From Acidithiobacillus sp. (GTDB lineage Bacteria > Pseudomonadota > Gammaproteobacteria > Acidithiobacillales > Acidithiobacillaceae): DNA of 55,186 bases. The notes beneath the pieces were generated by a model, which saw only the letters and a list, made by a program, of their open reading frames with translations, was not told the origin of the DNA and made no database searches. A program made the translations under genes and the position numbers. How positions within the stretch are numbered: the first letter of the stretch is position 1; the number at the start of each line of letters is the position of its first letter. Shown one piece after another: positions 1,866 to 17,732 of the stretch. The stretch spans positions 1-55,186 of the forward strand of contig JBBIUH010000001.1 of NCBI GenBank assembly GCA_037440305.1, given 5' to 3'.

Positions 1866-2375
1866 TCAAATGGGCAACGTCAACCCAAAGGTATGCCCCA
1901 GGGCGATGGCCGTACCCACCACATTAGCCGCCAATGCGCCGCCGATGATGTGCACGAAGGCGGTATCCGAGCTCTCCCGCGTGGTGCCGTCGCCGACTCG
2001 CTTCAGAATCACCAGCCCGCGAAACACGGCCAGCCAGCCGACGAGCTGCACGAAGTTCTCGATCACCATCACCGCGAGGCCCACGTGCGCGCCGCCCGGA
2101 CCAGTGTAGGCCAGCGGCGATGGCTGTCCCTGGCTGAAAAAGGTGCCCACGTCATGGAGCACGAACACGGGCATGGCCATCAGCAACGCCCCCGTCGCGG
2201 CGGTGATCGGGATCCGGCTTTTGTGGATCCGCGGGTCGTTGCTGACACGGACCATCAAAAAGACGCTGTCCGCCACAAACCAGAGACCGACGACGAAGGA
2301 AAGACCCACGGTCAGCACGAACATGGGACCGAGACTCTGGCCCATGTTCCCGATCATCTGGATGGCGGTCAGCAT
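1866..2375 (-). CDS. IcmC/DotE (TraQ)-like inner-membrane type IVB secretion protein
   Basis: Several TM helices; 'FVQLVGWLAVFRGL' and 'HIIGGALAAN' resemble IcmC/TraQ; last gene of the dot/icm-like run. Confidence 0.7.
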   Translation of the reverse strand: MLTAIQMIGNMGQSLGPMFVLTVGLSFVVGLWFVADSVFLMVRVSNDPRIHKSRIPITAATGALLMAMPVFVLHDVGTFFSQGQPSPLAYTGPGGAHVGLAVMVIENFVQLVGWLAVFRGLVILKRVGDGTTRESSDTAFVHIIGGALAANVVGTAIALGHTFGLTLPI

Positions 2376-2390
2376 GCGTCTCTCCTCCCG

Positions 2391-3059
2391 TCAATAGCCG
2401 ATCGTGCCCCGGCTGGTAATGACCGCGTCCGGAGTGACCCGCAGGATCCGCAGGTCCTCCACTTGGCTCCCCGCCTCGACCACATGGGTCCGCCCGCCGG
2501 GTCCCTGGATCCATGCCTCGTTCGCGCCGATGGATTCCACGGACCAGCCGGGCACGCCGTGCCGCTGCGCCGCTGGGACCCTTGCGATTTCTCGTTGCGG
2601 TTCCCGATGCGTGCCGGGCGGGAACCTGGCTGCGGAACGCATTTCCTGATCGACTGCCGCCAGCCGTTCATTCGTGTGCCGTTGCGCGGTGGCCAGTGCG
2701 CGCAGGTCCGCACCGATCCTGGCCATGGCCTGCGCCAGATCCGGCGCGGCCGGAGAGGTGACGGATGCCGTCACCCCGGTGGCCAGGGTCGCGGAGATTG
2801 GTGCCACCGAAACTGCGGATGCGCTCACCGCCGCGGCAGGCGCGGAGGCTGCCGGCCATCCCTCCACCGGGGAGGCCGGGGCCGGCGTGCCGGAAGGCGC
2901 GGATCGCGCCGCCCGAACGGGGGCAGTAGAGGCGAACGGGTTTGTCGCCGGATGCGGGGTTTTCGGGGCGAAGTCGAACTCCCAGGTGGCAAACCCGATA
3001 CCCAGGATCACTACGGCCACGCCACCCACCGCCAGATAGAATTTCAGATTGTCATGCAT
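2391..3059 (-). CDS. IcmG/DotF (TraP)-like protein
   Basis: N-terminal TM, Ala/Pro linker, coiled coil, then C-terminal 'AWIQGPGGRTHVVEAGSQV...VITSRGTI' resembling the DotF C-terminal domain. Confidence 0.65.
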   Translation of the reverse strand: MHDNLKFYLAVGGVAVVILGIGFATWEFDFAPKTPHPATNPFASTAPVRAARSAPSGTPAPASPVEGWPAASAPAAAVSASAVSVAPISATLATGVTASVTSPAAPDLAQAMARIGADLRALATAQRHTNERLAAVDQEMRSAARFPPGTHREPQREIARVPAAQRHGVPGWSVESIGANEAWIQGPGGRTHVVEAGSQVEDLRILRVTPDAVITSRGTIGY

Positions 3060-3139
3060 CGAGGTCTCCTGTCATCGTCATAGGGGCACCGCCGTATAGC
3101 CGCCTGTCGGACGTGCCCCTCACGCTGCCGCCATTTCCA

Positions 3140-3697
3140 TCAACGAATCTTCCCCAGAATGCCGTGCACGGCGGTTTCCAGGCGCACCTCCATGCGCTGC
3201 CCGCGCCGCGCCGTCATGCCCAGCCGTTCCGCCGCGGCCGCAATGGTCAACTCTTCGCCATAGCGCAGATGCACCCATTCGGCGAGATCGTCCGGCAGAC
3301 CGCGCATGACCGCCCCGACCCGTTCCGGGCTCCAGTCCACCGCCACGTCCTCGGTCACCAGTGATGCATCGGGATCCCCCTGGTCCCAGTCCTCCAGCGG
3401 CACGGTATCCACCTCCTTGCGTCCCCGAAACACGGAAAGCTCTCCGCGCAGTTTCCAGTAACTCCAGGGCGCAAAATGACCCTGCGCGGGATCCCAACTG
3501 TGCAGCGCGATGGTGACCGCCAGGCCGATGAACTGCTCCGCATCCTCCCGCGGCACCCCCATGGCGCGCGCCTGGCGGGCGGCCCCCGCACAGTACCGCC
3601 GCATGATGCTCCACAGCTGATTGCCGGCCACCGGGTTCCCGGAGCGGGTCGCCATGGCCAACTGGTCGATGTGATTCAGGTTCTGAAGCGCTTCCAT
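3140..3697 (-). CDS. Compact sigma-70 family RNA polymerase sigma factor (regions 2 and 4)
   Basis: Region 2-like 'EDAEQ...ALHSWDPAQGHFAPWSYWKLRGEL'; region 4 HTH 'LPDDLAEWVHLRYGEELTIAAAAERLGMT'. Confidence 0.75.
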   Translation of the reverse strand: MEALQNLNHIDQLAMATRSGNPVAGNQLWSIMRRYCAGAARQARAMGVPREDAEQFIGLAVTIALHSWDPAQGHFAPWSYWKLRGELSVFRGRKEVDTVPLEDWDQGDPDASLVTEDVAVDWSPERVGAVMRGLPDDLAEWVHLRYGEELTIAAAAERLGMTARRGQRMEVRLETAVHGILGKIR

Positions 3698-3707
3698 GGT
3701 CCCTCCC

Positions 3708-4922
3708 CTACCCCAAGCCGGCCTTCACCGGCGCCATGAACAGAATCCCGATCCCGCTGCCCGCCTTGACCCGGACCGTGGGCGGAGTGTTGAAGCGCTG
3801 GGCCATGATCGGCGCGAGCGTCTGCCCCACGTTGCCCACCGCCGACAAGGCGATCTGTCCGTTGCTCAACTGATGCGTGACCACGCCCAGACCGGAGCCG
3901 GTCAGATAGGTGTTGGTGTTAGCGGAGTCCAGGGCGTTATTGAGGCCCTGCAGGAGGCTGGCGCCTATCAGCCAGCCATAGCGATAGAGCGTGTGCCGGT
4001 TGACCGAGGTCGCGAGCGCTGTGCGCGCCGTCGCCAGGGTGATGGCGTAGGCCCGGATGGATATCGTCTGGTGGTGCAGTGTCAGGGAGGAGAACTGGAC
4101 CAGGACCCGATCGTGCACGCGGGTGAAACCACCCAGCAGACGGGCGCCGGCGAAACGTCCGGTCTCGATGGTCGCCAGCACCGGTCCGGGCTCCGTGGAC
4201 TTGATGCTGGTATCCAGCACCGCGAAAGAGATATGCCCGGCATTCGCCAGGGTGGGAGCGGCCACGCTCCCCGTCGATGCCGCCGTAGCCGTGACCTTGC
4301 CGGCCTTGGTTCCCTGGAGCGTGCCGTTGGCCACGAGAACCGCGACGGGAGGCTGCTCCATCTTGAGGATCGCGGCCACCTCGGCGTTGATCTGATGCGC
4401 ATCGGGATTCGGGGCGTAGCGCACCGCCGTCATTCCCGACCGATCGACGGGCCGATGATGGATGACCGGGCCGATCGGCCGGGCCGCACCGGATTGGATC
4501 GTGGCTTTGCGGATCGCCCCGACGGTCGGCAGGGAGGAGAGCCCCGCCTGCAAGGCCTTTACCGCCTGTTTCTGGTTGTATTGGTTCAGGTCTGCATTGT
4601 AGACGGGCGTTCCCGGACCACCGGGTGTGTTCCGCATCTGGGCCACCTGGCCACCGGCCGAGATCGGTACCGCCGGGGCACGGGGCCAGAGCAGAATCGT
4701 CAGAAACCCGATCACACCGACACCCAGGGCGGCGCCACCGACAATCAGGGGTCGCCGGGCCGGGTCGCCCAAGGCGCTACGGACCCCATGCAAGATGCCT
4801 GGAGCTTTGGCGGTCGCGAACGGATCTTGTGCAGGAACTGGGGAACCTGCCGGGGCGGATGTTCCCGACGGACCCGGCGTACCGTTCATAGGCGTCTGTG
4901 GTATCTGCGTTTCATCCACCAT
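3708..4922 (-). CDS. DotG/IcmE (TraO; VirB10-like) core complex protein
   Basis: N-terminal TM; C-terminal TrbI-like domain 'AVLDTSIKSTEPGPVLATIETGRFAGARLLGGF...PPTVRVKAGSGIGILFM'. Confidence 0.85.
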   Translation of the reverse strand: MVDETQIPQTPMNGTPGPSGTSAPAGSPVPAQDPFATAKAPGILHGVRSALGDPARRPLIVGGAALGVGVIGFLTILLWPRAPAVPISAGGQVAQMRNTPGGPGTPVYNADLNQYNQKQAVKALQAGLSSLPTVGAIRKATIQSGAARPIGPVIHHRPVDRSGMTAVRYAPNPDAHQINAEVAAILKMEQPPVAVLVANGTLQGTKAGKVTATAASTGSVAAPTLANAGHISFAVLDTSIKSTEPGPVLATIETGRFAGARLLGGFTRVHDRVLVQFSSLTLHHQTISIRAYAITLATARTALATSVNRHTLYRYGWLIGASLLQGLNNALDSANTNTYLTGSGLGVVTHQLSNGQIALSAVGNVGQTLAPIMAQRFNTPPTVRVKAGSGIGILFMAPVKAGLG

Positions 4923-6012
4923 GGCGGGAGCCCTCCAGCAAGGGGTTCAAGGTCAAGGTGCGCGCATGGCCATTCTGGCTGACCGTGACCGCTGGCACGT
5001 CGGGCAGGACATAGGTGCGTATGCCGGCCGCGCCATCCATGCGCGCCACCCAGGCGGGAGCCAATACCGGCATGGGGGTGCGCAGGAGCAGGCGGCGCCC
5101 GTGGGATCCCGTCCATGACCAGGCCATCACCCGGGGAGGATTGCCGGCGACCTGCAAGGGCTGCGCGCCCGCCGGTGGCAGGTCCTGGACCAGCTTCAAC
5201 AGCACCTGGGTGTAATTCCCGTTGGGTACGCCGCTAGCCCCGACGGGCGGCGGCAAGCCCGGCTCGATGGCGTTCACCCGGACGCGCACGCTGTAATCGG
5301 CCACCATGCCGGAGGGCACCAGGGCCAGAAGTACCGGTTGCGATTCGCCCGCGAGCCAGACCGCGAGGTTACTTTGGGCGTAGGGCTCCAAGACAGACAG
5401 CATCAGGGAATCCCCGGCGAACTGCGCAGCGAAGGCGGCCTTGTCGCCGATGCCCACATGGACGATCGGCCAGGGCCGGCCATAGGCATCGGTGAAGTTC
5501 AGCGTCGTGGCGTAGCCACTGTGCATCGCGATGGCGGGCGGACTTCCCGCCCCCAGCCGCGCCGTCACGGCGGTGAGTTTGGGTATCACCGCGGCCAACG
5601 GCGCCTGCTCGGCCTGACGGTTCCGGTCGATGCGTTGCCGCAGGAAGCGGATATCCCCGCCGGACAGGGGCATATGCGCCTGCACCGCCTGGTGGAACGC
5701 CTGGCTATCGGGCAAGGGGGGCAGCGCCATGACCGTGCCGTTGGGTCCCTTGACGTATTGGATCGTCTGGCCCTGCGCCTGGGCCTGCTGGACTGCCTGC
5801 TCCTGGGCCGGATCGACCGTTTGCCAGTGCTCGGACGTGGGCGTTCCCGAAGCGCCGGACGCCGTGGAAGCCGTTGCCGCGGTCACCGGGCTACCCGCGG
5901 ACTGACCCAGCAGCGTGTCGGGATTCACCGGCTGGGCGAAAGCCGGAACCACCAGCGATGTACCGGCGAGCAGTACGATGGCGGAGCGGAGGGCATGACG
6001 TGTCTGGAACAT
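4912..6012 (-). CDS. DotH/IcmK (TraN of IncI) core complex protein
   Basis: Signal peptide; 'GYATTLNFTDAYGRPWPI', 'SNLAVWL', 'LLLRT...LAPAW' motifs. Confidence 0.85.
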   Translation of the reverse strand: MFQTRHALRSAIVLLAGTSLVVPAFAQPVNPDTLLGQSAGSPVTAATASTASGASGTPTSEHWQTVDPAQEQAVQQAQAQGQTIQYVKGPNGTVMALPPLPDSQAFHQAVQAHMPLSGGDIRFLRQRIDRNRQAEQAPLAAVIPKLTAVTARLGAGSPPAIAMHSGYATTLNFTDAYGRPWPIVHVGIGDKAAFAAQFAGDSLMLSVLEPYAQSNLAVWLAGESQPVLLALVPSGMVADYSVRVRVNAIEPGLPPPVGASGVPNGNYTQVLLKLVQDLPPAGAQPLQVAGNPPRVMAWSWTGSHGRRLLLRTPMPVLAPAWVARMDGAAGIRTYVLPDVPAVTVSQNGHARTLTLNPLLEGSRHGG

Positions 6013-6024
6013 GTGGATTCCCCT

Positions 6025-6648
6025 CTATGGGACCAGAAAATTGAAACTCTGGATGGCGACCCCGGCGGGATGGGCCAGATTGTTCACGCGCACCATGGTG
6101 ATGTTCGCCACGAAGTCCTTGCTGTTGATGCCGTTGGAATTCTGGTAGATCAGCCGGATGGGCATCTGGATCTGCCAGCCATAGTCGCCGTTGGCCAGCA
6201 CTTGTTGATGCATCACCGCCGGGGCGCCGGTGACCGCCAGCGTCATGTTGAGCCGCCGCTCGCGAACGGCCGCGATATCGCCCGTCTCGACCAGGGTCGC
6301 CTGGTAGCTCCGGTAACCGGCCGCCGTGAAGTATTTCACCGCCCGTTGTTCATCCTGGCGCCAGTTGACGTAGCTGATGTCGAAGGCGGAGGTCATTCCC
6401 TCCTGGGCGCGGGTCAGCACGGCGGAATCGTTCAACAGCGGTTCCCGCAGCGGGACCAGGCGGGTGATGACCCCATTGGGCGAGGTCGCGAAATACACCA
6501 CCCGCGCCGGACGGGTCGCCACGATGAACAGGGCGATGGCCAGGACGGCGGAGATGCCGGCGAGCACCAGGTTGGCGAGGAACGACAGCCGCCACAGCCG
6601 CCGCCAGGCCTCGATGCCGATGCCGATGTTTTCCAGGGGGGTGTTCAT
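6025..6648 (-). CDS. DotI/IcmL (TraM; VirB8-like) protein
   Basis: Single TM then 'YFATSPNG.ITRLVPL.EP', 'YFT..GY', 'W.IQMP', 'GVAIQSF'; ATG at 6648 overlaps the upstream stop. Confidence 0.85.
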   Translation of the reverse strand: MNTPLENIGIGIEAWRRLWRLSFLANLVLAGISAVLAIALFIVATRPARVVYFATSPNGVITRLVPLREPLLNDSAVLTRAQEGMTSAFDISYVNWRQDEQRAVKYFTAAGYRSYQATLVETGDIAAVRERRLNMTLAVTGAPAVMHQQVLANGDYGWQIQMPIRLIYQNSNGINSKDFVANITMVRVNNLAHPAGVAIQSFNFLVP

Positions 6649-7118
6649 GGGTGTCCTCCTCCAGAGGCCCGCTCCAGGGGCCGATAAAAATCCCGTTGCG
6701 CCAATTTCGCCACCCGCTGCCGGTACTGGTGGTTCCAATGGGGGATCGCACTGTTGTAATCGCCGACGTGCCGCCAGAAGGCGCGGGGATGGGCAAATGC
6801 TTGCGCCCGAGACGGATGACCCGCGAGTTTGCGGGCGAGGATCCAGGCGCCTACGGCGACGTTCTGGCAGCCGTTGTCGAGGACTTCCGGGCGGGTGATG
6901 CCATAGTGGGCGAGCACGGACAGCCACAGGGAATTGATCCCCATGGGCCCCATGTCGTAGCTGCCGTTGGCGTCGTGCACCGTCTGGCCGGCGCGGGTAT
7001 CTTCGGTGGCGAGGATGCCGTAGAGGAGACCGACCGGGACGTGGTAACGCTCCGCGGCCGCGGCGACGCAGTAGCGGTGAACCGGAGTCAGGGGCGGAGA
7101 AGGATCAGGCATCCACAT
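6645..7118 (-). CDS. Lytic transglycosylase (SLT domain, TrbN/PilT-like)
   Basis: 'CVAAAAERYHVP..LL.GI..TE', 'NGSYDMGPMGIN', 'VGDYNS' motifs. Confidence 0.9.
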   Translation of the reverse strand: MWMPDPSPPLTPVHRYCVAAAAERYHVPVGLLYGILATEDTRAGQTVHDANGSYDMGPMGINSLWLSVLAHYGITRPEVLDNGCQNVAVGAWILARKLAGHPSRAQAFAHPRAFWRHVGDYNSAIPHWNHQYRQRVAKLAQRDFYRPLERASGGGHP

Positions 7119-7121
7119 GGC

Positions 7122-7598
7122 TCAGCCCGCCATCACGTAGACCCGGTGTTGGGTCACGACGATGAGAATCCCGCGGTAGCGGGCGATGTGGTAGAGAGCG
7201 ACCGAAGCACTCCCCGCCGGCCAGGAAACCGTTGGCAGCATCAGACCGGGGTGGATACTGATCCGGTGTTCCGGCACCAGGCGCTCGATGGCTGTCCGCA
7301 GCGCGGCATGCCCGGCGGGCACCCAGCGGTTCGGATTCCAGCCGTGCAGGTTGTGGGCCAGCACGCCGCTCAGCAGGCCCCGGTCCTGCAACGTGGACAG
7401 ACGGGGGAAAGACGCGGAAGAGCCGGCGGGCGCGGTAACGGCGGGGACCCTGCCGAGGACCGGCGCCGTGGGCAGGGTCGGGTGCACCGAGCGGCTTGCC
7501 GGTGCCGGGCCGATATAGGTCCAGGCGGCCCAGGCCGGTGTGGCCGCGAGAGCGGTCAGCAATGCGGCCGTCCAGAGGGTGGATGCTTTGCGCTTCAT
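7122..7598 (-). CDS. Secreted/periplasmic hypothetical protein (possible TcpQ/N0-like domain)
   Basis: Sec signal peptide MKRKASTLWTAALLTALAATPAWA; ATGA overlap with the upstream gene; domain guess is tentative. Confidence 0.55.
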   Translation of the reverse strand: MKRKASTLWTAALLTALAATPAWAAWTYIGPAPASRSVHPTLPTAPVLGRVPAVTAPAGSSASFPRLSTLQDRGLLSGVLAHNLHGWNPNRWVPAGHAALRTAIERLVPEHRISIHPGLMLPTVSWPAGSASVALYHIARYRGILIVVTQHRVYVMAG

Positions 7599-8434
7599 GA
7601 TTCGGCGCCCTCCCCTTGCGTTCCCTTGCGCCGAAAACTGGGCCACTGACAGTGCAGCAGCGTGCCCTGATGGCAGATTCGATCGAAAGCGGCGGAGCCG
7701 AGATATTTTTCCAGCTCCGTCAGGGTCTCGTTGCTGAGCAGGATGGTCGGCCGCGCCCGGTAGCGGCTGTCGATGACCCTGAACAGGCTCAGTCGTTCAC
7801 TGTCCGAGCCGTGCTGTTTGCCTACTTCGTCCAGGATCAGGAGATCGACCGCCGCAAAGGCCCCGATGACGCCGCTCTCGGACGGGCCATCGCCGTTGCG
7901 CCAGGTCGCGCGGATCCGTGCGATGACCTCCCAGACCATGGCTTGCAGGACGGTCCGTCCCTGAGCCAGCAACGCATGCGCGATGGCCGCGGCGAGATGG
8001 TTCTTGCCGGTGCCGGGGGGACCCAGGAGGATCAGGGCGCGTCCGTCGGTGTTGGCCGCGAAATCGGCCGCATAGGCCCGGCAGGCCTCCACCACCCGGG
8101 CCTGCGCCGGGGTGGATATCCGGAAGCTGGCGAAGTCGCAATCGCGGTAACGCTCCGGGATGGCCGCGCGGTCCAGGAGTGCGGCCAGCTGCCGCTCGGC
8201 GCGGCAGCGCGGGCAACCGGCCGGGGTGATGAAGCGCACCGTCCCCTGTTCGTCCACCAGGGATTCGGGGTACCGGCCATGCCGCGCGCAGTGCCGGTAT
8301 TGCGGATGCCGGTCCGGCAGCAGGGCCACGTTGGAGGCCTGCGGCAGGCCATGGCGGCGCAGGATGTCCGTGGCCAAATCCCTCAAGGCAGGAGTCCGGC
8401 GAGGCGGTGGGGGCGATTTTGGCAGGGTGGACAT
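7595..8434 (-). CDS. DnaC/IstB-like AAA+ ATPase (helicase loader)
   Basis: Zn-binding CARHG...CPRC, 'IPERY', Walker A GPPGTGKN, Walker B LLILDEVG, 'VIDSRY', 'TILLSN'; SD GAGGAG. Confidence 0.9.
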   Translation of the reverse strand: MSTLPKSPPPPRRTPALRDLATDILRRHGLPQASNVALLPDRHPQYRHCARHGRYPESLVDEQGTVRFITPAGCPRCRAERQLAALLDRAAIPERYRDCDFASFRISTPAQARVVEACRAYAADFAANTDGRALILLGPPGTGKNHLAAAIAHALLAQGRTVLQAMVWEVIARIRATWRNGDGPSESGVIGAFAAVDLLILDEVGKQHGSDSERLSLFRVIDSRYRARPTILLSNETLTELEKYLGSAAFDRICHQGTLLHCQWPSFRRKGTQGEGAES

Positions 8435-8445
8435 GACGGCGCTCC

Positions 8446-9444: not shown

Positions 9445-9446
9445 CT

Positions 9447-9668
9447 TCAATCCTCCAGAATCAACACACCGTTGCATGCGGGCACCGGGGCGAGGGGTAG
9501 GCGCAGATGCACCTCACCATTGGGCATCCGTGTCCGCTCGATCAGCCCGCACCGCTCCAGGTCGTCCAGAGCCTCGTCCACCATCTCTCGGGTGATGGCC
9601 TGCCGTAGGAAAGGCTGCGCCCCTCGTCGTTTCGCTTGTTCCCGCCGCTTGCGTTCAGCTTTCGTCAT
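9447..9668 (-). CDS. Small wHTH-like protein resembling a segment of the downstream initiator
   Basis: SD AGGAGG; AITREMVDEALDDLERCGLIE...LRLPLA versus initiator TITMDGVRHALEVLKKCGVIE...FRLPCA. Confidence 0.6.
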   Translation of the reverse strand: MTKAERKRREQAKRRGAQPFLRQAITREMVDEALDDLERCGLIERTRMPNGEVHLRLPLAPVPACNGVLILED

Positions 9669-9948
9669 CACGCGTCCTCCTGATCCAGTCCAATGAAGCG
9701 GGTTTCCAATACCCGCCGCCTTGCTCAAAGAAAAGTTCCAACCGGGACCGCGCTAGTAGCCAGTCGGCCATGTTCATGTCGCCGATCCGCGCCAAAACGG
9801 CATCGTCGTCTGGAACAAGACCGTGCTTCTGGGCGTAGAGCAGCAGCAGGAACAGGGCGGCGTGTTCTCCCGGCCGGAAATCGGACGTCTCCGCCATGTA
9901 CTCCGGGACGGAAATCGCCAGTCCCCGGGGCTTGCTTCCACAATCCAA
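9655..9948 (-). CDS. DUF1376/YdaU-like phage protein
   Basis: 'EYMAETSDF...EHAALFLLLLY...VPDDDAVLARI' matches the YdaU/DUF1376 N-terminal pattern; TTG start uncertain. Confidence 0.65.
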   Translation of the reverse strand: MDCGSKPRGLAISVPEYMAETSDFRPGEHAALFLLLLYAQKHGLVPDDDAVLARIGDMNMADWLLARSRLELFFEQGGGYWKPASLDWIRRTRDDES

Positions 9949-9952
9949 AACT

Positions 9953-11218
9953 TCACGCCCTCCTCCCGTCGATCACGCAACGCCCGGCCTCAATGCGCAG
10001 GTGGCGGCCGCCGCGGCTGACCAGTACCGTGCCAGGACTGCCGTGATGCACGGCGCAGACCTGCGTCACGGCGCCACGGGCGGACCGAATAGCATGCGCT
10101 CCCACCACCAGTTTCCCGTCCGGCCCCCAGACCGACACATCATCGGCATGGACGGCAATGGTGCGCAGGGCCACCGGCAGCAGCCATCCTCCCGGTCCAT
10201 AGACCCCATCGACGTTATAGGTGGAAGCCGCCCGGGAAAACGGAGCCGGTGACACGCCCGGCAGATCGCCTTCGCGCCAGAGCCAGGCCATCAGCGGCAG
10301 CGACAGCCCTACGGCCACCGCGATGGCCAGGCGCTTGTGGCGGCGCGCGGCCCTGATCCGCAGGAGTTTGGTGCCGGGGGGAAAGAGGTCAGGCACTTGA
10401 ATAGAATTTATGGATTCCATATAATTTGATTCATGGAGAAACGAAAAGCCCACTACTCCCTGCCAGAGATCAAGGCATCTGTTGCTCGCCTTGGGATCGG
10501 CGCTTTTACCGCTACCGCTTTGCAGGGACTGGGTCTGATGGGTCTTTCTCCGCCCGACGGCCTGGCCGTTGTGTTGGGCCTGCAACCGGAAATGCTGTTC
10601 AAAAGCATGACCACTTACGCGGATAGCCAGGTATGGCAGGATGTTTATCACGCCATCTGTCCCAACGGGAAAACGGCCTACATCAAAATCACGTTGCGCC
10701 CGGGGACCGTGGTGATTCAGTTCAAGGAGCTTTGACATGACAGAAAAACGCTTTTGCTTGCAGTGCGACGACGGCACGGAACTTGTGCATGAGCGCAAGG
10801 ACATGATCATTTCCGTGGATGGCTTGACCGTTACCGTACCGGCCATCGCCGGATGGCATTGTCCGGTCTGCGGAGAATGCGAATTTGATGCGGGTGAAGC
10901 GCAGCGGTATGCAAACGCGTTGAGCGCGTTGCGTAAGGATGCCGCCACCCACCAGGGGCAGGCGTTACGCGCAGCGCGTAAACGTCTGCACCTGAGCCAG
11001 AAAGATGCCGGACTGCTTTTCGGCGGTGGCGCATCCGCGTTTTCCGAATACGAGCGCGGCAAGACCCAACCCCATAAGTCTACGGTCCTCTTGCTAAAAC
11101 TGCTCGAAAAGCATCCGGAACTCATGAACGAGATCAGACGGGCGGGATAAGTTCCAAACCTGTCAGGAATAGGGACTCCAAGGTGACGGGTTTGCGGCTG
11201 CGCGCTGAAATGGCTCAT
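9953..11218 (-). CDS. Hypothetical membrane-anchored protein interrupted in-frame by an antisense mqsRA cassette (ancestral ~163 aa; frame still open over 421 codons)
   Basis: ATG at 11218 has SD GGAGG and an ATGA overlap with the upstream ORF; TM segment LAIAVAVGLSLPLMAWLW; GTCAGG direct repeat flanks a 774-bp insert. Confidence 0.5.
   Translation of the reverse strand: MSHFSAQPQTRHLGVPIPDRFGTYPARLISFMSSGCFSSSFSKRTVDLWGWVLPRSYSENADAPPPKSSPASFWLRCRRLRAARNACPWWVAASLRNALNAFAYRCASPASNSHSPQTGQCHPAMAGTVTVKPSTEMIMSLRSCTSSVPSSHCKQKRFSVMSKLLELNHHGPRAQRDFDVGRFPVGTDGVINILPYLAIRVSGHAFEQHFRLQAQHNGQAVGRRKTHQTQSLQSGSGKSADPKASNRCLDLWQGVVGFSFLHESNYMESINSIQVPDLFPPGTKLLRIRAARRHKRLAIAVAVGLSLPLMAWLWREGDLPGVSPAPFSRAASTYNVDGVYGPGGWLLPVALRTIAVHADDVSVWGPDGKLVVGAHAIRSARGAVTQVCAVHHGSPGTVLVSRGGRHLRIEAGRCVIDGRRA
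10397..10425 (+). promoter_or_regulatory. Sigma-70 promoter of mqsRA with a palindromic operator in the spacer
   Basis: TTGAAT(10397)-17 bp-TATAAT(10420); palindrome TATGGA-T-TCCATA at 10409-10421; ATG at 10433. Confidence 0.75.
10433..10735 (+). CDS. mqsR: MqsR family mRNA interferase toxin
   Basis: MEKRKAHYSL...FKSMTTYAD..WQDVYH...YIK...VIQFKE signature. Confidence 0.93.
   Translation: MEKRKAHYSLPEIKASVARLGIGAFTATALQGLGLMGLSPPDGLAVVLGLQPEMLFKSMTTYADSQVWQDVYHAICPNGKTAYIKITLRPGTVVIQFKEL
10737..11150 (+). CDS. mqsA: MqsA family antitoxin (Zn-finger + HTH)
   Basis: CLQC...CPVC Zn finger; HTH 'LSQKDAGLLFGGGASAFSEYERGKTQPH'. Confidence 0.93.
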   Translation: MTEKRFCLQCDDGTELVHERKDMIISVDGLTVTVPAIAGWHCPVCGECEFDAGEAQRYANALSALRKDAATHQGQALRAARKRLHLSQKDAGLLFGGGASAFSEYERGKTQPHKSTVLLLKLLEKHPELMNEIRRAG

Positions 11219-11307
11219 GGCTGACCCCCTCCCCATCCGCTGCGACGGCAGCCTCCATGGGAACCAGTGGGCAGACACGGGATGCGCCGGGCGCTTACGG
11301 TCCTCAT
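11215..11307 (-). CDS. 30-aa ORF translationally coupled at both ends
   Basis: MRTVSARRIPCLPTGSHGGCRRSGWGGGQP; ATGA overlaps with both neighbours. Confidence 0.4.
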   Translation of the reverse strand: MRTVSARRIPCLPTGSHGGCRRSGWGGGQP

Positions 11308-11510
11308 TCCTTCCCATCCTTCCGGGTTCGAGCCAGACGAATCAGGCGGCCGCGCACCGTTAATATGTGCGGTTCGGTGCCCGTAGACTGGCGAAGGCCC
11401 GCCGCGATCTCTGCGGCATCCGCTTCTGTGACCAAGCCATGGGTCCAGTCGGGCATCTGGAAGGCCCGACCGCAGTGAGTGCCATCAGGGTAGCCGCAGG
11501 TCCAAGTCAT
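11304..11510 (-). CDS. Hypothetical protein
   Basis: SD GAGG; ATGA overlap with the cro-like stop. Confidence 0.55.
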   Translation of the reverse strand: MTWTCGYPDGTHCGRAFQMPDWTHGLVTEADAAEIAAGLRQSTGTEPHILTVRGRLIRLARTRKDGKE

Positions 11511-11728
11511 CGTTTGTTTACCTCGCATAGATTGCGTCTTCCTAGGTATGGGCAGAGGTCGTCAATACTTACGCCAAAGTGCTTCGCAATAGCCCGTATC
11601 AGCGGTAGCGATGGCATAATGAGGCCGCGTTCAATACGGGAGATCGTCGATGGCGCAACTCCAACCTCCTTTGCGACATCCACCAAGGACTCCAGCCTAG
11701 CCTTTCGAAGTGAGCGGAGAGATTCCAT
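11507..11728 (-). CDS. Cro-like XRE HTH regulator
   Basis: LRSLRKARLESLVDVAKEVGVAPSTISRIERG; divergent from the repressor. Confidence 0.85.
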   Translation of the reverse strand: MESLRSLRKARLESLVDVAKEVGVAPSTISRIERGLIMPSLPLIRAIAKHFGVSIDDLCPYLGRRNLCEVNKR

Positions 11729-11818
11729 GCGGCCATTATTGCGCTATACGCAATTTTTTTACAACCATTATGCGTGGAGCGCTTTGCGCTATCAACAAGA
11801 ACGTTGCAGCCTACACGC
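11729..11818. promoter_or_regulatory. O_R-like divergent switch with TTGCG-N5-CGCAA operators
   Basis: ATTGCG-CTATA-CGCAAT at 11738-11754; degenerate copies at 11770 and 11784; minus-strand TTGTAA-18-AATAAT ending 6 nt before the cro ATG. Confidence 0.7.
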
Positions 11819-12247
11819 ATGAAGACCCTGGGTGAGGTGATACGAGAACTGCGGAAAGCGCGTGGCTGGACTCAGGAGGAGCTTGCTCACCGGGTGGGGT
11901 CAGATGCCGGGAACATCTCCAGACTGGAACGCGGTATCCAGGGTGCGTCCGAGAGTACATTGAGGGCGATAGCCAAGGCGTTCGATCTGCAATTGTCCGA
12001 CCTTTATGGCATAGCAGAAGAAGGGCATAGCATTGCCCTTGATCTGCAGATAGCCAGGGGTGCCGCTGGAGAAGAGACTATTTCGTCGCTACTTCAGATG
12101 CTTGCGAAGCGTTTCGATCGTGGCGATCCTGCCGTCCGTGAGGAGGTAGCGCGGCTGGTTCTGCGATACCTGGAAAATCCACAGGCGGGGGAGCGCATTG
12201 CCAAGGCAATCGAGACGCTCCTGGGTGGTGAGGATGGATCCAAGTGA
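11819..12247 (+). CDS. CI-like XRE repressor without an S24 peptidase domain
   Basis: MKTLGEVIRELRKARGWTQEELAHRVGSDAGNISRLERG; short helical C-terminus. Confidence 0.85.
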   Translation: MKTLGEVIRELRKARGWTQEELAHRVGSDAGNISRLERGIQGASESTLRAIAKAFDLQLSDLYGIAEEGHSIALDLQIARGAAGEETISSLLQMLAKRFDRGDPAVREEVARLVLRYLENPQAGERIAKAIETLLGGEDGSK

Positions 12248-12696
12248 TCCCCGAGTTCAACCGGCATGGACTTCTACCGCCGGGGATATGGGAATGCTCC
12301 AAGGAACAGGTAGCAGAAAGATTCTGCTGGAATCTTCTTAGATCGACACTATTTGAAAACCTCAACACATTTCTTTCTACCGAATGGAGGCAAACCAACA
12401 TCGAATGCCCAATACTCATAAATGGAAGCTTTGTGCGCAACATACCATCACCTTCCGATATCGATACGATACTTGACATGTCCCACACAAAATCCGACGA
12501 AACGCTAGCGCTTGCCCTTGCAGTACGATTGCGCCATGACGCCATCATGGCAGATCTTCGCGTTGATGTATGGGTGCATTATCCGAGATATTCAGATGAT
12601 TTTATAAAATATTTTCAACAGATTGGAACGAAAGCCGCAGCAGAGTTGCGATTGGGCAGCACATACCCGAAAGGTATCCTGAGGATATTGCCATGA
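12244..12696 (+). CDS. DUF6932-like minimal nucleotidyltransferase-fold protein
   Basis: MIPEFNRHGLLPPGI...INGSFV....PSDID (GS + DxD) and C-terminal KGIL; GTGA overlap with the cI stop. Confidence 0.7.
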   Translation: MIPEFNRHGLLPPGIWECSKEQVAERFCWNLLRSTLFENLNTFLSTEWRQTNIECPILINGSFVRNIPSPSDIDTILDMSHTKSDETLALALAVRLRHDAIMADLRVDVWVHYPRYSDDFIKYFQQIGTKAAAELRLGSTYPKGILRILP

Positions 12697-13649
12697 CTCA
12701 TAGAGAAAGTGCATATGATACGATGCGCGTTTTTCTCGAAAACATGGTCACCGAAGGACTGCTTGCAAAAGAAACAGGGGTTGATGCGACACCAAGACAG
12801 ATCGTAGACGCAACTTTCGAACAAATAATAAAAATTGCCGAAAAAAGTCTACCGCTAGCGCACTTGTTAGATAATTCCGATTTGGTCTTCCGCGCGGAAG
12901 GCCGTGGTGTAACGCAAATAATGCCATGGCTATCCTCACTGACCTGGCTCACCAGCACGGTGGAACAAAACTTGCGACGTCTGTCTGCCGCGGTCATTGA
13001 CTTGCTGGGTGCCAACGGTACCAAGCTTTCCAAGCAAATTGACTTGCGGGTTACCGGAATAGCTCCCGGAAGTTTGTGGTTTGGCACCAAGATACAGCCC
13101 CCATCGGCCGACTTGCTTCCAGAGGATGATCAACTCGTCATACGCCTTCTCAAGGCCATTGATCTTTTGCCCGTCCTTGCCAACGATATCGGAGATGATA
13201 GCGTGCTTCCTGGCGCGGCAGAGACCATGCCTGACCCGGCCTTACGCGATGTAGCGCTCCATACCCTCTTGAGCTTCTCGCCCACAGGCACTCGGGGTAT
13301 CGACACCTTGGAATTTTCCAGCCGAGGAAACGGTATTGCCAGATTGTCCCAGCATGATCGTGTCGTATTACGGTCGGCCTTGCGCTCACCCCTTGGAGAT
13401 CGGGCCCTTCATGGTGCATTCACAGGAGAAGTACGAGCGGCGGATTTAGATAAAACACGCTTCAACCTGCGTACGAAAGAAGGGGTTTTGCGGTGCATTG
13501 CGCCAGAACTCCACCCCGAGCAGGCACGGGCGATGCTCGGTCACCTTGCGTTGGTATCCGGGCGCTACGAAACCGACCGCGATGGACGTCCGCGATTGAT
13601 GATGGTGGAGAAGATAGAGACCGTACCCGAGACAAAGAAGCTGCTATGA
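12693..13649 (+). CDS. Hypothetical protein (possible C-terminal OB-fold), partner of the DUF6932 gene
   Basis: 318-aa ORF with ATGA overlap; C-terminal 'FTGEVRAADLDKTRFNL...LVSGRY' beta-rich pattern. Confidence 0.7.
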   Translation: MTHRESAYDTMRVFLENMVTEGLLAKETGVDATPRQIVDATFEQIIKIAEKSLPLAHLLDNSDLVFRAEGRGVTQIMPWLSSLTWLTSTVEQNLRRLSAAVIDLLGANGTKLSKQIDLRVTGIAPGSLWFGTKIQPPSADLLPEDDQLVIRLLKAIDLLPVLANDIGDDSVLPGAAETMPDPALRDVALHTLLSFSPTGTRGIDTLEFSSRGNGIARLSQHDRVVLRSALRSPLGDRALHGAFTGEVRAADLDKTRFNLRTKEGVLRCIAPELHPEQARAMLGHLALVSGRYETDRDGRPRLMMVEKIETVPETKKLL

Positions 13650-13680
13650 CGAGCTAGCGCCCGTCCGACGAGTGAGAATG

Positions 13681-13702
13681 CCCGCCCCTGAGGCGGGTTT
13701 TT
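13681..13702 (+). terminator. Rho-independent terminator of the cI-DUF6932-partner operon
   Basis: CCCGCC-CCTGA-GGCGGG followed by TTTTT. Confidence 0.75.
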
Positions 13703-13715
13703 CAACACTGATATT

Positions 13716-13753
13716 TTGCGGTTGACGCAATTTAATATTTGCGCATAATGCAT
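13716..13753 (+). promoter_or_regulatory. P_L/O_L-like promoter with two operators
   Basis: TTGACG(13722)-16-CATAAT(13744), overlapped by TTGCG-GTTGA-CGCAA (13716-13730) and TTGCG-CATAA-TGCAT (13739-13753). Confidence 0.75.
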
Positions 13754-13791
13754 TTATCGCTTGACCGTTACGTTGGCAAAGGAGAGCCGCC

Positions 13792-14019
13792 ATGATTCTC
13801 CCATTCACACACCAGTACGTCGTTCTGCAGGTGGCCGGCCCGTGCGGCTCGCCGGAGGGGATCGCTATAGATCTGCTCTCCACGGTAGTCCAGATCCGCC
13901 CCACCCTGCGACGGATCGGACTGGGCTTCAGCACCGGTGAATTGATCCGCATAGTAGATCTCACCCCGCCCACCTTGGGGCAAAATCTTGAGCTGGAGGT
14001 TCCCCATGTCCTCCACTAA
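13792..14019 (+). CDS. Hypothetical protein (first early gene)
   Basis: SD AGGAGAG; follows the P_L-like promoter. Confidence 0.5.
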   Translation: MILPFTHQYVVLQVAGPCGSPEGIAIDLLSTVVQIRPTLRRIGLGFSTGELIRIVDLTPPTLGQNLELEVPHVLH

Positions 14020-14239
14020 GCGCCGTCGCCCGCTGACCCTCCGCCAGATCCAACTCCTAAAACTGGCCCAAGCCGGATGCAAGACCAGCGTCATCGCCCG
14101 CGAACTCGGCATCCAGGAGGGCACCGTCTACGCCAAGCTGCGCGCCATCAACCAGGGCGCGCAGCGCGGTATTTATGAAATACCGCCCGAATTGGATATG
14201 CCCCTATTCCAGGAGGATGGCCACCATGGCTCGTATTGA
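14006..14239 (+). CDS. Stand-alone LuxR/GerE-type HTH protein
   Basis: LTLRQIQLLKLAQAGCKTSVIARELGIQEGTVYAKL; SD GGAGG. Confidence 0.75.
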   Translation: MSSTKRRRPLTLRQIQLLKLAQAGCKTSVIARELGIQEGTVYAKLRAINQGAQRGIYEIPPELDMPLFQEDGHHGSY

Positions 14240-14411
14240 TCTCAACAAGGACATCAAGGTAGCGGACATGCAGGCGGTGCTTTCCGCGATCCGGTCAGAA
14301 GCCGCCGCTCACGGGCTGCGCCTAGATCTCGCACGGGACGAAGACAATGTGTGGATCATTCGCCCTGCGCCGCCGAAGACCGAATCCACAAGCAAAGGAG
14401 CCCTGCAATGA
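14226..14411 (+). CDS. Hypothetical protein
   Basis: SD AGGAGG; overlaps both neighbours. Confidence 0.55.
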   Translation: MARIDLNKDIKVADMQAVLSAIRSEAAAHGLRLDLARDEDNVWIIRPAPPKTESTSKGALQ

Positions 14412-15904
14412 TGACCACTCAGGAAAGCCACGCTGGAACGATACCGGGAACGGAAGCGCACGCGGTCCAGGACCACCCCATCGCCATGGTACCCAACAAA
14501 GGCGTGGCTACCATCCAGGTGGCACGATGGGACCGCTTCGTCCCCATCCCGGAGTGCCGGGATATCATGCCGCTGCGCCTTGCGGATCGGCCTGAATACC
14601 TGCGCCTCTTTGATTTGATCAAGACCCATGGCGTCACGGACCCCATCAAGGTCACTCCGTTGGAGGACGGGCGTCTCGGTGTGCTGGACGGGTATCTGCG
14701 GGTCGTCGCCGCGGAACAGCTCGGCTTGGAGGTGCCCTATGTCATCATCCCCGTGGAAAACCTCTATGACGCCACGCTGAAAACCGCAGAATTCAACTTC
14801 TCCCATCGACAACTCACTGATTACGAAAAAGTCTGGGTGATCGGGAACCATTACCTCCTGGCCAAGAACCTTCGTAAGGGTGCCCCAGATGGCAACAAAA
14901 ATGCGGTAAAGGGCGATGACAAAAACAATGGGGTAAATTTACCCCATTGTTTTGACGATCCCCTGGATGGTGGTGCTGGCAGAACGCGCGAACGACTGGC
15001 GGCGATTTATGGTGTCAGCGAAAAGACCGTCCGCAACTACGCCGATGCAGTCACCCTGATGAACTCCATCGTCAGCGCCCTCACCCGGCATCTGAACCTG
15101 GTGGAGGAAACGATCCGGCTGCACTTCTTCAATACCAACGCCGATCCGGAGGCCAATGTCGAGCTCGCCACGATCTTCGCCATCCTGCGCTACCTCAAGG
15201 CCCAGGGGAAATTCCAGGAAATGGATCATTGGGTGAGCCTGGCCGTCCAGCGCTGGGCCAAGGCCGTCGCGCTCTCGCCGGACAGCCTGCCATCGGTCTC
15301 CCCCGCCAACTGGGTAGCGGCCACCTGGCATGTCTTGCCGGACGTGATCCCGATGGACGATCCGCAGACGGTGCATGACGTGGAGATCATCACCGGAAAC
15401 CGCAGTGATGGCAGGGGTTCTGCATCTTCCATGGGCAGTGGAAGGTCTCCTGGTTCCGGCAGGACCGGAGGGTCGGCCAGCTACGCGAATGTCACGATGG
15501 CCGAGGCCACCGTGATCAATACGGCCGCGCTGGATTACGAAGACGCCTACTGGACCAGGGTCGGCGAGAGGAGCCGGTACTTTTTGGAAAACCTGGCGGA
15601 GTTCCAGAAGGCTCTGGGGGAAGTCGTCGATCAGCATCTGCCCGCCCTGATGCGCATGACCCGGGAGATCTACGAGGAATTACAGGATGCCCCGGACCAT
15701 GCGGAATCCGTAAAGATCGATCTCCGCAGGCCGGCCTGGACATCCATTTCACGCTTCTACAAAGAACTGAACCGGATCAAGAGCGTGGCCATGACCGGCA
15801 GCGATCGCCACCGTGATAGCGCTGTGCAATGGCTCACCCTGTTCCACCAACTCGGGGAACGTTGCCAGGAAAAAATGCCCCGCACGACGAGGGACCTGTT
15901 TTGA
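14408..15904 (+). CDS. ParB/Srx N-terminal domain protein with HTH and long C-terminal extension
   Basis: 'IKTHGVTDPIKV...VLDGYLRVVAAEQLG', 'N..HRQLTDYEK', HTH 'RERLAAIYGVSEKTVRNY'. Confidence 0.75.
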   Translation: MMTTQESHAGTIPGTEAHAVQDHPIAMVPNKGVATIQVARWDRFVPIPECRDIMPLRLADRPEYLRLFDLIKTHGVTDPIKVTPLEDGRLGVLDGYLRVVAAEQLGLEVPYVIIPVENLYDATLKTAEFNFSHRQLTDYEKVWVIGNHYLLAKNLRKGAPDGNKNAVKGDDKNNGVNLPHCFDDPLDGGAGRTRERLAAIYGVSEKTVRNYADAVTLMNSIVSALTRHLNLVEETIRLHFFNTNADPEANVELATIFAILRYLKAQGKFQEMDHWVSLAVQRWAKAVALSPDSLPSVSPANWVAATWHVLPDVIPMDDPQTVHDVEIITGNRSDGRGSASSMGSGRSPGSGRTGGSASYANVTMAEATVINTAALDYEDAYWTRVGERSRYFLENLAEFQKALGEVVDQHLPALMRMTREIYEELQDAPDHAESVKIDLRRPAWTSISRFYKELNRIKSVAMTGSDRHRDSAVQWLTLFHQLGERCQEKMPRTTRDLF

Positions 15905-15957
15905 GGCAATGACACGTTTTTCCCTTAGAACCGCAGGAAAGCTGCAAGGAGATTCTC

Positions 15958-16227
15958 ATGCATCTGGACGAAAAAACCAAAAGCATTATCGAGGACATAC
16001 TGAACCGCAAGGCAAAGATCGCCCTGCAGAGGGAGGATATCCGCGAGGACATCAAGGTCGTTGCCGAACGGATGGGTGTCACGCCCGCCGCAGTGAACCG
16101 CATCATGACCCTCGTGGACAAGGAGCGCAGCAATGGCGATGTCCTCCATAGCGAACGGGAGGTCATCGATGCGGCGGAGATCCTGGCGGGCGTCAACAAC
16201 CCCGATGAGGACCCCTCCCATGCGTGA
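15958..16227 (+). CDS. Small helical protein, possibly GapR/DUF2312-like DNA-binding protein
   Basis: 'IIEDI...KIALQREDIREDIKVVAERMGVTPAAVNRIM' resembles the GapR fold; SD AGGAG. Confidence 0.5.
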   Translation: MHLDEKTKSIIEDILNRKAKIALQREDIREDIKVVAERMGVTPAAVNRIMTLVDKERSNGDVLHSEREVIDAAEILAGVNNPDEDPSHA

Positions 16228-16468
16228 ATCACCCGTCGGGATTTTGGAAGAGTGCGCGGACTGGCTGGAGAGCGAGGCCCAGGGGTACCGCAATCGCGCC
16301 CTGCATGCCCTCAAGATGGGCCAGAAAGGATCGACGGATGCGCTACTGGAGCAGGCGGACCGCTTCCAAAAATACTCTTTGGCCGTCCGCCAGCAGCATC
16401 ATGGCGCATTGCAAATCATCAGGGAAGAACTTTGCCATGCAAGGTCAAACCACATTCATCACGCCTGA
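16220..16468 (+). CDS. Hypothetical protein
   Basis: SD GAGG; overlaps neighbours in the early operon. Confidence 0.5.
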   Translation: MRESPVGILEECADWLESEAQGYRNRALHALKMGQKGSTDALLEQADRFQKYSLAVRQQHHGALQIIREELCHARSNHIHHA

Positions 16469-16664
16469 AGAAACCGAAGAGCTAACCGGATATGTCAGGC
16501 GCCCGGCACAGACCCGGTGGCTGGAACGGCATGGTTTCAGCTTCGCCCTAACACGCTCCGGCCGTCCGATTGTGCTTCGTGCCGAGATGGAGCGCCACCT
16601 TCTGGGCAACAGACAAGCCACCACATCAATGGAGGACTGTCCACATTGGGACAGAATCGCCTAA
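16437..16664 (+). CDS. DUF4224 family protein (putative excisionase)
   Basis: 'FITPEETEELTGY.RRPAQ.RWL...G......SGRPIVLR...P.W'; immediately upstream of the integrase. Confidence 0.8.
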   Translation: MQGQTTFITPEETEELTGYVRRPAQTRWLERHGFSFALTRSGRPIVLRAEMERHLLGNRQATTSMEDCPHWDRIA

Positions 16665-16667
16665 CAT

Positions 16668-17663
16668 ATGGGCATGGGACGCAAGCGCACAAAGGATAAG
16701 GGGCTGCCACCGCGGATGTACAAACGCGGTGAAGTCTACTATCACGCCTGCTGGATAGACCGCAAGCTGAAGTGGACACGACTATCCGCAAACAAGGCCG
16801 AGGCGCTGACCTTGTGGGCTGCCATAGAGGGCCAATCCACGGTCCCTGGTGAAAAAACCGGAACCATAGGAGCCGCGATTGCCCGGTATGAGGGGGAAAT
16901 CCTCCCTGCGCTCCGCCCACGGACCCAGGAGGACTATCACCGCATCCTCAAGGCACTCAGAGATGTGTTCGGGCACATGCGCATCGAATCCCTGCGTCGC
17001 CCTGACGTCGCCGGCTATCTCGATAGGCGTAGCGCCAAGGTGGCGGCAAACAGGGAAATCGCCGTATTATCCAGCGTCTTCGCATATAGTATCCGCTGGG
17101 GATGGGCTGAGGAGAACCCCTGCCTGGGTGTGCGCCGCAACAAGGAAAAGCCGCGCAAGAGGTATATTACCGATGCCGAGATGGAAAAGTTACGTCAATG
17201 CGCTGATGAACAATGGAAGTGCATCATCGATTTGGCTTATCTGACGTCCATGCGCCGTGGTGACATCATGAAATTACGACTAGACCAGTGCACAGAGGAG
17301 GGGCTTTTGGTCGCGCAGGAAAAAACGGGCGCTCGCGTCCTTTATACCTGGACACCGGCCTTGCGGGCAGTGGTTTCAAAGGCGCGAGGATTGCGGCGCA
17401 GGATAGGATCCCTCTCGTTGTTTGCATCCCAGGATGGGACACCCTATACCGTCAGCGGATGGAACAGCGCATGGCGCCGGTTGTTGGCAAAGTCGGAGGT
17501 GGATGACTGCCATTTTCATGATATACGCGCAAAGTCGCTGACGGATGCCTCCAAGATTGGAGGCCGCGACTACGCTCAAGCCCTGGCCGGCCACGCTGAT
17601 GGAAGCATGACTGAGGTTTATATTCGCGACCGAGAATTTACTCATGTACGGCCGCTTCACTGA
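16668..17663 (+). CDS. int: Tyrosine recombinase / phage integrase
   Basis: Catalytic R (MRRGDI), K (QEKTG), HxxR (FHDIR), AGH and Y (TEVY); adjacent to the tRNA. Confidence 0.95.
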   Translation: MGMGRKRTKDKGLPPRMYKRGEVYYHACWIDRKLKWTRLSANKAEALTLWAAIEGQSTVPGEKTGTIGAAIARYEGEILPALRPRTQEDYHRILKALRDVFGHMRIESLRRPDVAGYLDRRSAKVAANREIAVLSSVFAYSIRWGWAEENPCLGVRRNKEKPRKRYITDAEMEKLRQCADEQWKCIIDLAYLTSMRRGDIMKLRLDQCTEEGLLVAQEKTGARVLYTWTPALRAVVSKARGLRRRIGSLSLFASQDGTPYTVSGWNSAWRRLLAKSEVDDCHFHDIRAKSLTDASKIGGRDYAQALAGHADGSMTEVYIRDREFTHVRPLH

Positions 17664-17729: not shown

Positions 17730-17732
17730 TAA

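Follow-up and report, generated by a model that had tools for sequence, protein, structure and literature searches.

What does a phage-type genetic switch control when the genes behind it encode components of a Dot/Icm (type IVB) system instead of a virion? This question is raised by a 55,186-nucleotide stretch of Acidithiobacillus DNA (assembly GCA_037440305.1, contig JBBIUH010000001.1; hereafter the window), which is the whole of contig C1 of draft genome G000 (2.24 Mb, 173 contigs, 94% complete) and whose proteins have their named relatives in Acidithiobacillus. A first-pass annotation of positions 1,866 to 17,663 had proposed a new class of integrative element, in which a lambdoid switch and replicon drive a secretion or transfer apparatus. 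The combination of a phage-type switch and replicon with genes of mating-pair formation class I (MPF-I) is real, conserved and under purifying selection, but the proposed new class, devoid of the canonical gene set found in integrative and conjugative elements (ICEs), did not survive comparison with related copies. The window contains the left attachment site (attL) end of an island at tRNA-Pro, where MPF-I genes are preceded by a lambdoid switch, an O-like replication initiator and a DnaC-like helicase loader. We consider it quite likely that this is one end of an ICE whose intact copies would excise, replicate from a predicted origin within the initiator gene and transfer by relaxase-led conjugation. 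The element is an unusual variant of ICE with a lambdoid head, not a new class.

An island at tRNA-Pro

The tRNA-Pro(GGG) gene (17734-17810, minus strand) is bordered on its right by host genes, which from their translations are merR-like, ihfA, pheT and pheS housekeeping genes. Its 3' part forms the attL core (17723-17780), a 58-bp sequence 98% identical to the attR repeat. The latter, a second copy of the tRNA 3' end that the first-pass annotation had recommended looking for, was found on contig C98 (1400-1456), where dotD, dotC and dotB come next. The C98 flank directly adjoins the tRNA gene in the relative G015, where the locus is 95% identical; this is the empty site. An integrase, flanking att repeats and an empty site in relatives, three features expected of an ICE, are thus all present. 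An attP join was not found in the contigs of the sequencing runs; a loose end at 17723 in these contigs proved to be the tRNA-Pro(TGG) paralogue on C31. Contigs C108, C34, C114 and C125 have short stretches in common with the element, with no link to its missing middle.

A lambdoid switch and a predicted replicon

Thirty open reading frames (ORFs) of the window were scanned with hidden Markov models (HMMs) of Pfam, NCBIfam and PHROGs. A tyrosine integrase (16668-17663, plus strand; phrog_1, 3e-53) and an excisionase of the DUF4224 type (16437-16664, plus; phrog_4764, 1e-14) are preceded by an early operon (13988-16468, plus) that comprises a LuxR-type helix-turn-helix (HTH) gene, a 78-aa ORF, a gene for a 517-aa ParB-like protein (14351-15904) and two small ORFs. 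This operon is kept in G002, and the ParB-like protein is also found in locus L035. A P_L-like promoter (13716-13753, plus; TTGACG-16-CATAAT) has operator copies overlapping it. The switch itself consists of a cI-like repressor gene (11819-12247, plus), which encodes an HTH alone, and a cro-like HTH gene (11507-11728, minus), with divergent promoters between them (11735-11798) and operators at 11739-11753 (perfect) and 11784-11798. The window contains just two matches to the operator TTGCG-N5-CGCAA, one at 11739 between cI and cro and the other at 13716 in the P_L-like promoter, against a chance mean of 0.17 and with 1 of 100 shuffles reaching two, a comparison that serves as a consistency check since the motif was taken from these sites. 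A loose search allowing two mismatches stayed at chance level (43 vs 39), and promoter and terminator counts in the window were near chance. HMM matches and the operator at both promoters thus bear out the int-xis pair, the early operon and the shared-operator switch described in the first-pass annotation.

The O-like initiator gene (8446-9447, minus; phrog_391, 5e-9) overlaps the gene for a DnaC-like helicase loader (7595-8449, minus; phrog_50, 3e-62) at a GTGA. In its predicted model, an N-terminal winged helix and a helical C-terminal domain are joined by a low-confidence linker, in which the iterons lie; these are six 11-bp iteron-like repeats inside the gene (8954-9105), beside an AT-rich stretch (~8915-8940), and form the predicted origin. 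Six copies of the 11-mer compare with at most three in 40 codon shuffles, and by the same shuffles neither dnaC nor dotH has such an excess. With a cI/cro switch, int and xis, an O-type initiator with a predicted internal origin and a loader, the head contains the components by which a lambdoid early region is recognized. Virion or lysis families had no match among the 30 window ORFs, as the earlier annotation had stated for capsid, terminase, tail and lysis genes, and none was seen among the G002 element ORFs scanned or read (cargo ORFs scanned in part); the single terminase family searched, TerL PF03354, was not found in three of three genomes. Searches of PDB with the initiator, by sequence and by Foldseek, returned nothing significant. 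In VIA-align, a DnaB primosome protein scored Z 7.3, which is inside the noise range. Upstream, a DUF1376 ORF (9655-9948, minus) matched below cut-off; initiators of the Trb-type sister elements described below have this domain at their N-terminus.

Different copies combine different modules. G002 (L022:9334-10182) has the window's initiator together with non-homologous cI/cro genes and a different operator at both promoters (motif identified by eye), while G012 (L113, contig C95) has the window's cI/cro with another initiator allele (56%) and other iterons; L035 also carries another initiator allele and different iterons. Immunity and initiator modules swap as they do in lambdoid phages.

These exchanges bear on an alternative that accepts the element as an ICE and holds that the initiator-loader pair serves for amplification in place before excision, as in some prophages, or is a passenger of the switch module, and is not the replicon of the excised circle. 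According to the accessible text of PMC5587801, relaxases can by themselves replicate ICEs, and a distant MPF-I family in G009 and G030 has no rep-dnaC pair in the stretches fetched, so MPF-I islands can exist without one. However, the iterons co-vary with the initiator alleles, the ratios of nonsynonymous to synonymous substitution rates (dN/dS) between the window and G002 are 0.21 for rep and 0.14 for dnaC, and ParM and the ParB-like gene suggest an episomal phase. We regard this alternative as unlikely and prefer a circle that would replicate from its own origin.

The transfer genes of the leftward run

All genes of the run named here are on the minus strand, and the dot names are given with their IncI tra/trb counterparts. 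Downstream of dnaC follow a 158-aa ORF of no known family (7122-7598), with a signal-peptide-like start (by eye) and kept in L035; a TrbN/VirB1-like lytic transglycosylase gene of the SLT type (6645-7118); dotI/traM (6025-6648; 4e-37); dotH/traN (4912-6012; 4e-44); a short, plasmid-type dotG/traO of 404 codons (3708-4922), whose product aligns solely with positions 799-1007 of NF033900; a gene for a sigma-70-like factor (3140-3697; dN/dS 0.05), the predicted activator of the distal transfer genes; a dotF/traP-like gene (2391-3059; 5e-6, below cut-off); and a gene for a traQ/dotE-like membrane protein (1866-2375; 2e-5, below cut-off), one of whose cluster members carries the JGI name IcmC. HMM matches and the six repeats uphold the first-pass calls of initiator with iterons, DnaC-like loader, SLT, dotI, dotH, dotG and sigma factor; dotF, dotE and DUF1376 are those that fall below cut-off.

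By Pfam matches, the element has at least four specific genes, the number required for MPF-I in the accessible text of PMC3158045: DotI/TraM, DotH/TraN and DotC/TraI are above the cut-offs and TraP and TraQ below, with IcmT/TraK above cut-off in the G002 copy. The run had been described as nearly gap-free. Intergenic gaps from o143 to dotF do range from -15 to +80 bp, and the five ATGA overlaps noted earlier are present (the one at 11215/11218 joins just tiny or antisense frames), but a convergent mqsR-mqsA toxin-antitoxin insertion (10433-11150, plus; with a promoter-like site of its own at 10397-10425), missed in the earlier annotation, interrupts it. The mqsRA pair is not in the G002 copy, whose similarity to the window stops at 10362 and resumes at 11299.

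Copies with and without the central block

A single contig of G002 spans the element, its att cores separated by 62.8 kb, in the order att, dotD-dotC-dotB, lipoprotein genes, icmT, parM, primase, about 38 kb of cargo with copies of the insertion sequence (IS) IS3, and then the toxin-antitoxin pair, dot run, dnaC, initiator, switch, xis and int. The cargo (L020:1180 to L021:19700) sits behind an AbiEii fragment and IS3 copies, and includes genes for urea carboxylase/allophanate hydrolase, sarcosine oxidase, and folate and amino-acid transport.

More complete relatives were reached through metagenome locus L034 (DotH 62%), which reads dotH-dotG-sigma-dotF-traQ-ORF-dotO. A search with its DotO led to a 61% cluster; among the named sequences in it are Acife_0437, from A. 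ferrivorans SS3, and QFG79245, from Acidithiobacillus 'AMD consortium', both complete genomes. In 'AMD consortium', accessions run from DotH (QFG79264) through DotO (79245), DotM (79241), DotL (79240), DotA (79231), MobF (79229) and ParM (79201) to DotB (79195); in SS3, from DotH (Acife_0424) through DotO (0437), DotM (0441) and DotA (0514) to MobF (AEM46725), ParM (AEM46739) and DotB (AEM46747). The DotH proteins of both are 96% identical to that of the window, and their DotH and DotB together are 96-98% identical to those of the window and C98. Members P0463 and P0345 of the window's Cro/integrase clusters show 98.6%/99.4% identity. In G012, the head and a dot run at 96% are found on contigs C95 and C14, between which there is an overlap of 130 bp at 99% identity, and the DNA of contig C217 encodes a 909-aa MOBF relaxase-helicase (NF041492, 1e-73), DotA, DotL and DotM; the 90% clusters of these C217 proteins again include both complete genomes. 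Relaxase, DotL, DotO and DotA are thus present in near-identical copies by accession order (DotL in one genome), and all but DotO also on G012:C217. Since these copies are listed with the full set, and since dotD, dotC and dotB stand at the other att, the view that the Dot/Icm genes replace a canonical ICE set fails; the first-pass annotation had itself named such a set as the finding that would overturn it.

From the accession order in the two complete genomes and the separate G012 contigs, an intact copy is expected to read traQ-[cargo]-dotO-dotM-dotL-[cargo]-dotA, MOBF relaxase, primase, parM, icmT, dotB-dotC-dotD and attR. DotO lies 11 and 19 accessions after DotH in the two complete genomes, so that cargo after traQ is normal for the family. 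The G000 draft also lacks parM and primase, hence the whole C98-C1 interval is missing from it, and whether this interval is unassembled or deleted is about evenly balanced.

Several observations weigh against an ICE replicating through this head. DotO, DotA, DotL and TrwC were not found in searches of G000 or G002, where the one DotL match (1.6e-4) is 400 kb from the element, so that the sole copy read end to end cannot conjugate alone; it is a defective member whose central block has really been lost and replaced by IS-flanked metabolic cargo. Contiguity in SS3 and 'AMD consortium' rests on accession order, not DNA; DotL is among the matches listed (15 per cluster) for the latter and not for SS3; and for initiator and loader of both genomes, the exact window sequences were not in the collection searched. 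G012:C217 is unjoined to C14, no close DotO was found in G012 (85% complete), and in no copy read do the head and the full transfer set share one stretch of DNA. As for the head, the cI-like repressor has no self-cleavage (peptidase S24) domain, mqsRA opposes the P_R transcript in the window copy and would interrupt the co-induction from one promoter that the first-pass annotation had proposed, and a fold search with the initiator (VIA-align) gave just generic winged-helix matches (best Z 8.7).

The same absences, in G002 from att to att and in the G000 draft, together with dot genes that are open and have dN/dS below 0.45, would suit a relaxase-free new class in which the 'late' genes give a Dot/Icm core that serves for secretion or contact. 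Such a class is very unlikely and already largely refuted, because near-identical copies are listed with the full set and because the clusters of DotO (39), DotA (27), MobF (30), DotM (33) and DotL (45) are about as large as that of DotH (45). In addition, as established for MPF systems, no function is expected of a core that lacks the TraU/DotO ATPase, low dN/dS may be inherited from intact ancestors, and the DotG is of the short plasmid type. The likely output of the ICE that we favor is DNA conjugation.

Conservation of the arrangement

Of 61 genomes, 14 gave a DotH match; identity was 94% or higher in G000, G002 and G012 alone, and G006 had a match at 52%. The dnaC gene stands upstream of dotI-dotH in four of seven metagenome loci and in G006, at DotH identities of 50-60%; two of the seven are near-duplicates and two others are too short upstream to judge. 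The gene order therefore recurs at DotH identities of 94-96%, ~60% and ~50%, and the spread covers no fewer than four named species. For all 13 element genes tested, dN/dS between the window and G002 is 0.02-0.41. Synonymous divergence (dS) is 0.08-0.22 for element genes and 0.55 for one host gene (n = 1), which fits recent horizontal spread. A genome-contig scan with one protein gave two loci; no viral contig held a relative of DotH, the ParB-like protein or DnaC (single-protein patterns catch close relatives only), and plasmids yielded DotH at 33% at most and, in three records, the C-terminal part of the initiator only.

That the early region of a decayed prophage and a fragment of plasmid transfer genes were joined by chance, for which the insertions (mqsRA and the IS-like break), the DUF1376 remnant and the incomplete transfer set of the G000 assembly could be cited, is scarcely credible, since conserved order and purifying selection speak against a chance chimera, the ORFs are intact and coupled, and synteny across the copies refutes it, as it does the decay that the first-pass annotation had considered.

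For the ICE that we favor, the att pair, the empty site, the gene content, the shared operators, the iterons, the gene order and the purifying selection are the observations from which we infer the following steps. In the integrated state, cI would repress P_R and P_L. Upon derepression, P_L would give Xis, Int and the ParB-like protein, hence excision, and P_R would give initiator, loader, core-complex genes and the sigma factor; the latter would then activate the transfer operons farther along. The excised circle would be maintained and amplified by theta replication at the internal origin, together with ParM, and MOBF, DotL and DotM would feed it to the MPF-I pore.

Cargo, neighboring genes and related islands

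Behind cI lies a low-GC accessory pair (12244-13649, plus; PDC-M63A, 4e-9) of a DUF6932 nucleotidyltransferase-like gene and a 318-aa ORF, a candidate defense unit on sequence grounds, whose position resembles that of rexAB. At the other end of the window, a DUF433 and PIN toxin-antitoxin pair (1207-1760, minus) marks the start of a cargo hotspot, and a TIR-like gene (1-888, minus) is cut near position 105, where the contig stops at a repeat that is likely the end of an IS. On C98 (L029:4343-6243), small lipoprotein-like ORFs, a TraR/DksA-like ORF (by eye) and a PLD nuclease gene follow dotB. Just outside the G002 attR (L019:11756-12161), a dotF fragment is fused to an integrase 3' end, and the same relic occurs in three sequencing runs (X2, X3, X6; joint 2570-17321); it appears to be what remains of a deleted earlier copy of the family at this site. 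The G000 draft also has, on C15 (L195:790-4703), genes for TrbB and a relaxase of the MOBP type; they belong to a Trb-type element, which might mobilize a defective copy.

Heads of the same kind are not confined to this family. DnaC homologues (~53% identity; L070-L088 in G007, G008, G020, G002, G009, G016, G028 and G032) belong to a set present in 19 of 40 genomes of the order. In seven of the 11 neighborhoods fetched, a tRNA gene and an integrase lie no more than 10 kb away, in three cases with tRNA-Pro(GGG) again as the tRNA, and downstream in four there are genes for a MOBP relaxase, VirD4 or Trb proteins; in both loci scanned (L070, L076), dnaC comes after a DUF1376-type initiator. This kind of head also fronts Trb-type (MPF-T) elements in the genus and is not tied to Dot/Icm. 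The window sigma factor has no BLASTP similarity to the 399-aa ORF that follows dnaC in the Trb-type elements.

A second, distant family of MPF-I islands (DotH 31-33%; G009:C1 at 1.03-1.17 Mb and G030:C62; L104-L106, L150, L151) lies at tRNA-Thr or tRNA-Pro and has dotO, dotA and dotC/B, with dotM and dotL seen in G030, where no TrwC was found. In G006 and G012 (L152, L154), a gene for a 364-aa TrwC-domain relaxase stands directly upstream of distant dotD-dotC-dotB (45-49% identity).

Comparison with known systems

The element resembles the IncI (R64-type) MPF-I in its traM/N/O/P/Q-like run, its traH/I/J-like dotD/C/B, traK/icmT, TraU/DotO, TraY/DotA, TrbA/DotM, TrbC/DotL, primase, nuclease and ParM, whereas its chromosomal location with a tRNA integrase and att pair, its MOBF relaxase-helicase, its phage-type switch and initiator and the sigma-like gene inside the operon set it apart. 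With a lambdoid prophage such as Pseudomonas phage D14P it shares int-xis, a P_L operon, cI/cro with shared operators, an initiator with internal repeats in the O position, an adjoining loader and the swapping of immunity and initiator modules, but it has no virion or lysis match in the ORFs scanned, transfer genes after the loader and a cI without S24. The core components are homologous to those of the Legionellales Dot/Icm effector system; unlike the latter, the element is mobile and relaxase-linked, its DotG has 404 aa instead of ~1000 aa with repeats, and there is no sign of an effector role, though no search was aimed at IcmS/IcmW adaptors or effectors. A phage satellite (of the phage-inducible chromosomal island or P4-like kind) is spoken against by 63 kb in G002 and the conjugation set.

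Published elements were compared from the accessible portions of their reports. The A. caldus ICE.2 elements likewise have an integrase, an excisionase and a cI/cII/Cro switch before a conjugation system, which, unlike that of the window, is a Trb (MPF-T) system with a VirD2 relaxase (PMC3826726, whose main text mentions neither DnaC nor Icm). Tn6104 and streptococcal integrative and mobilizable elements also combine a phage-type theta initiator with DnaC, integrate and are moved by conjugation, but they are Firmicute elements, mobilized in trans and without a pore of their own (PMC5704250). MPF-I systems on chromosomes are reported to be very rare (PMC3158045, PMC5587801) and were essentially the dot/icm of Legionella and Coxiella (PMC3158045), with the component set given in PMC4027160, and a survey of 200 ICEs listed theta-replication proteins in 16 and no MPF-I ICE (PMC5587801). 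The literature accessible to us held no description of this family and none of LvrA as an initiator, although supplementary CONJscan tables may list the SS3 system.

Initiator relatives and the Legionella lvrA position

In a set of 1.84 billion representatives, 3148 relatives of the initiator were found at E <=0.001. Among 41 aligned homologues, 19 match phrog_391 (O-like), and three match NF040582 (best 1e-6), named 'STY4528 family pathogenicity island replication protein', a hint that other islands have related initiators. In phage D14P, a homologue lies between a YdaT-domain gene and the gene for replication protein P, in the order cI-cro-cII-like-[gene]-P. The D14P protein led to one locus of Legionella adelaidensis (L201:6986-7894), ordered HTH-[gene]-ORF-csrA-type IV secretion system (T4SS) genes, in which the gene, by our own reading, holds the lvrA position. 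The winged-helix domain of the window initiator is 33% identical to its product (pairwise E 3e-15), the product matches phrog_270 'replication initiation protein' (3e-13), and the gene has five internal 11-mer repeats against at most three in 40 shuffles.

The Legionella lvrR-lvrA-lvrB-lvrC islands (Lvh, Trb-1, LGI), as far as PMC3864950 was accessible, share with the element a divergent repressor, an initiator homologue with internal repeats and a T4SS operon, and differ in having no DnaC adjoining in the one locus read, a CsrA-like lvrC and MPF-G/T/F instead of MPF-I; in that source the lvr genes are a Legionella-specific regulatory module on islands without replication modules. Tentatively, and with slightly less than even confidence, we propose that among proteobacterial ICEs lambda-O-type initiators, each with the origin in its own gene, are a widespread replication module that has been overlooked, that several conjugation classes (MPF-I and MPF-T in Acidithiobacillus) have had a phage early region grafted onto them, which swaps its immunity and origin modules in a phage-like manner, and that the Legionella LvrA, filed as a regulator, may be a stripped-down form that would replicate those islands as episomes.

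Implications

The significance of the element rests on the rarity of MPF-I ICEs, on its phage-type replicon and on the LvrA lead. The family is an apparently undescribed, recently spreading MPF-I/MOBF ICE family of biomining and acid-drainage bacteria, in which the ICEs described so far, in the sources accessible, are of the Tra and Trb types. It offers a concrete candidate for ICE replication after excision independent of the relaxase, and shows a conjugative element exchanging modules as phages do. The lvrA-position homologue would, in turn, provide a testable answer to the question of how Legionella islands said to be without replication modules may persist as episomes.

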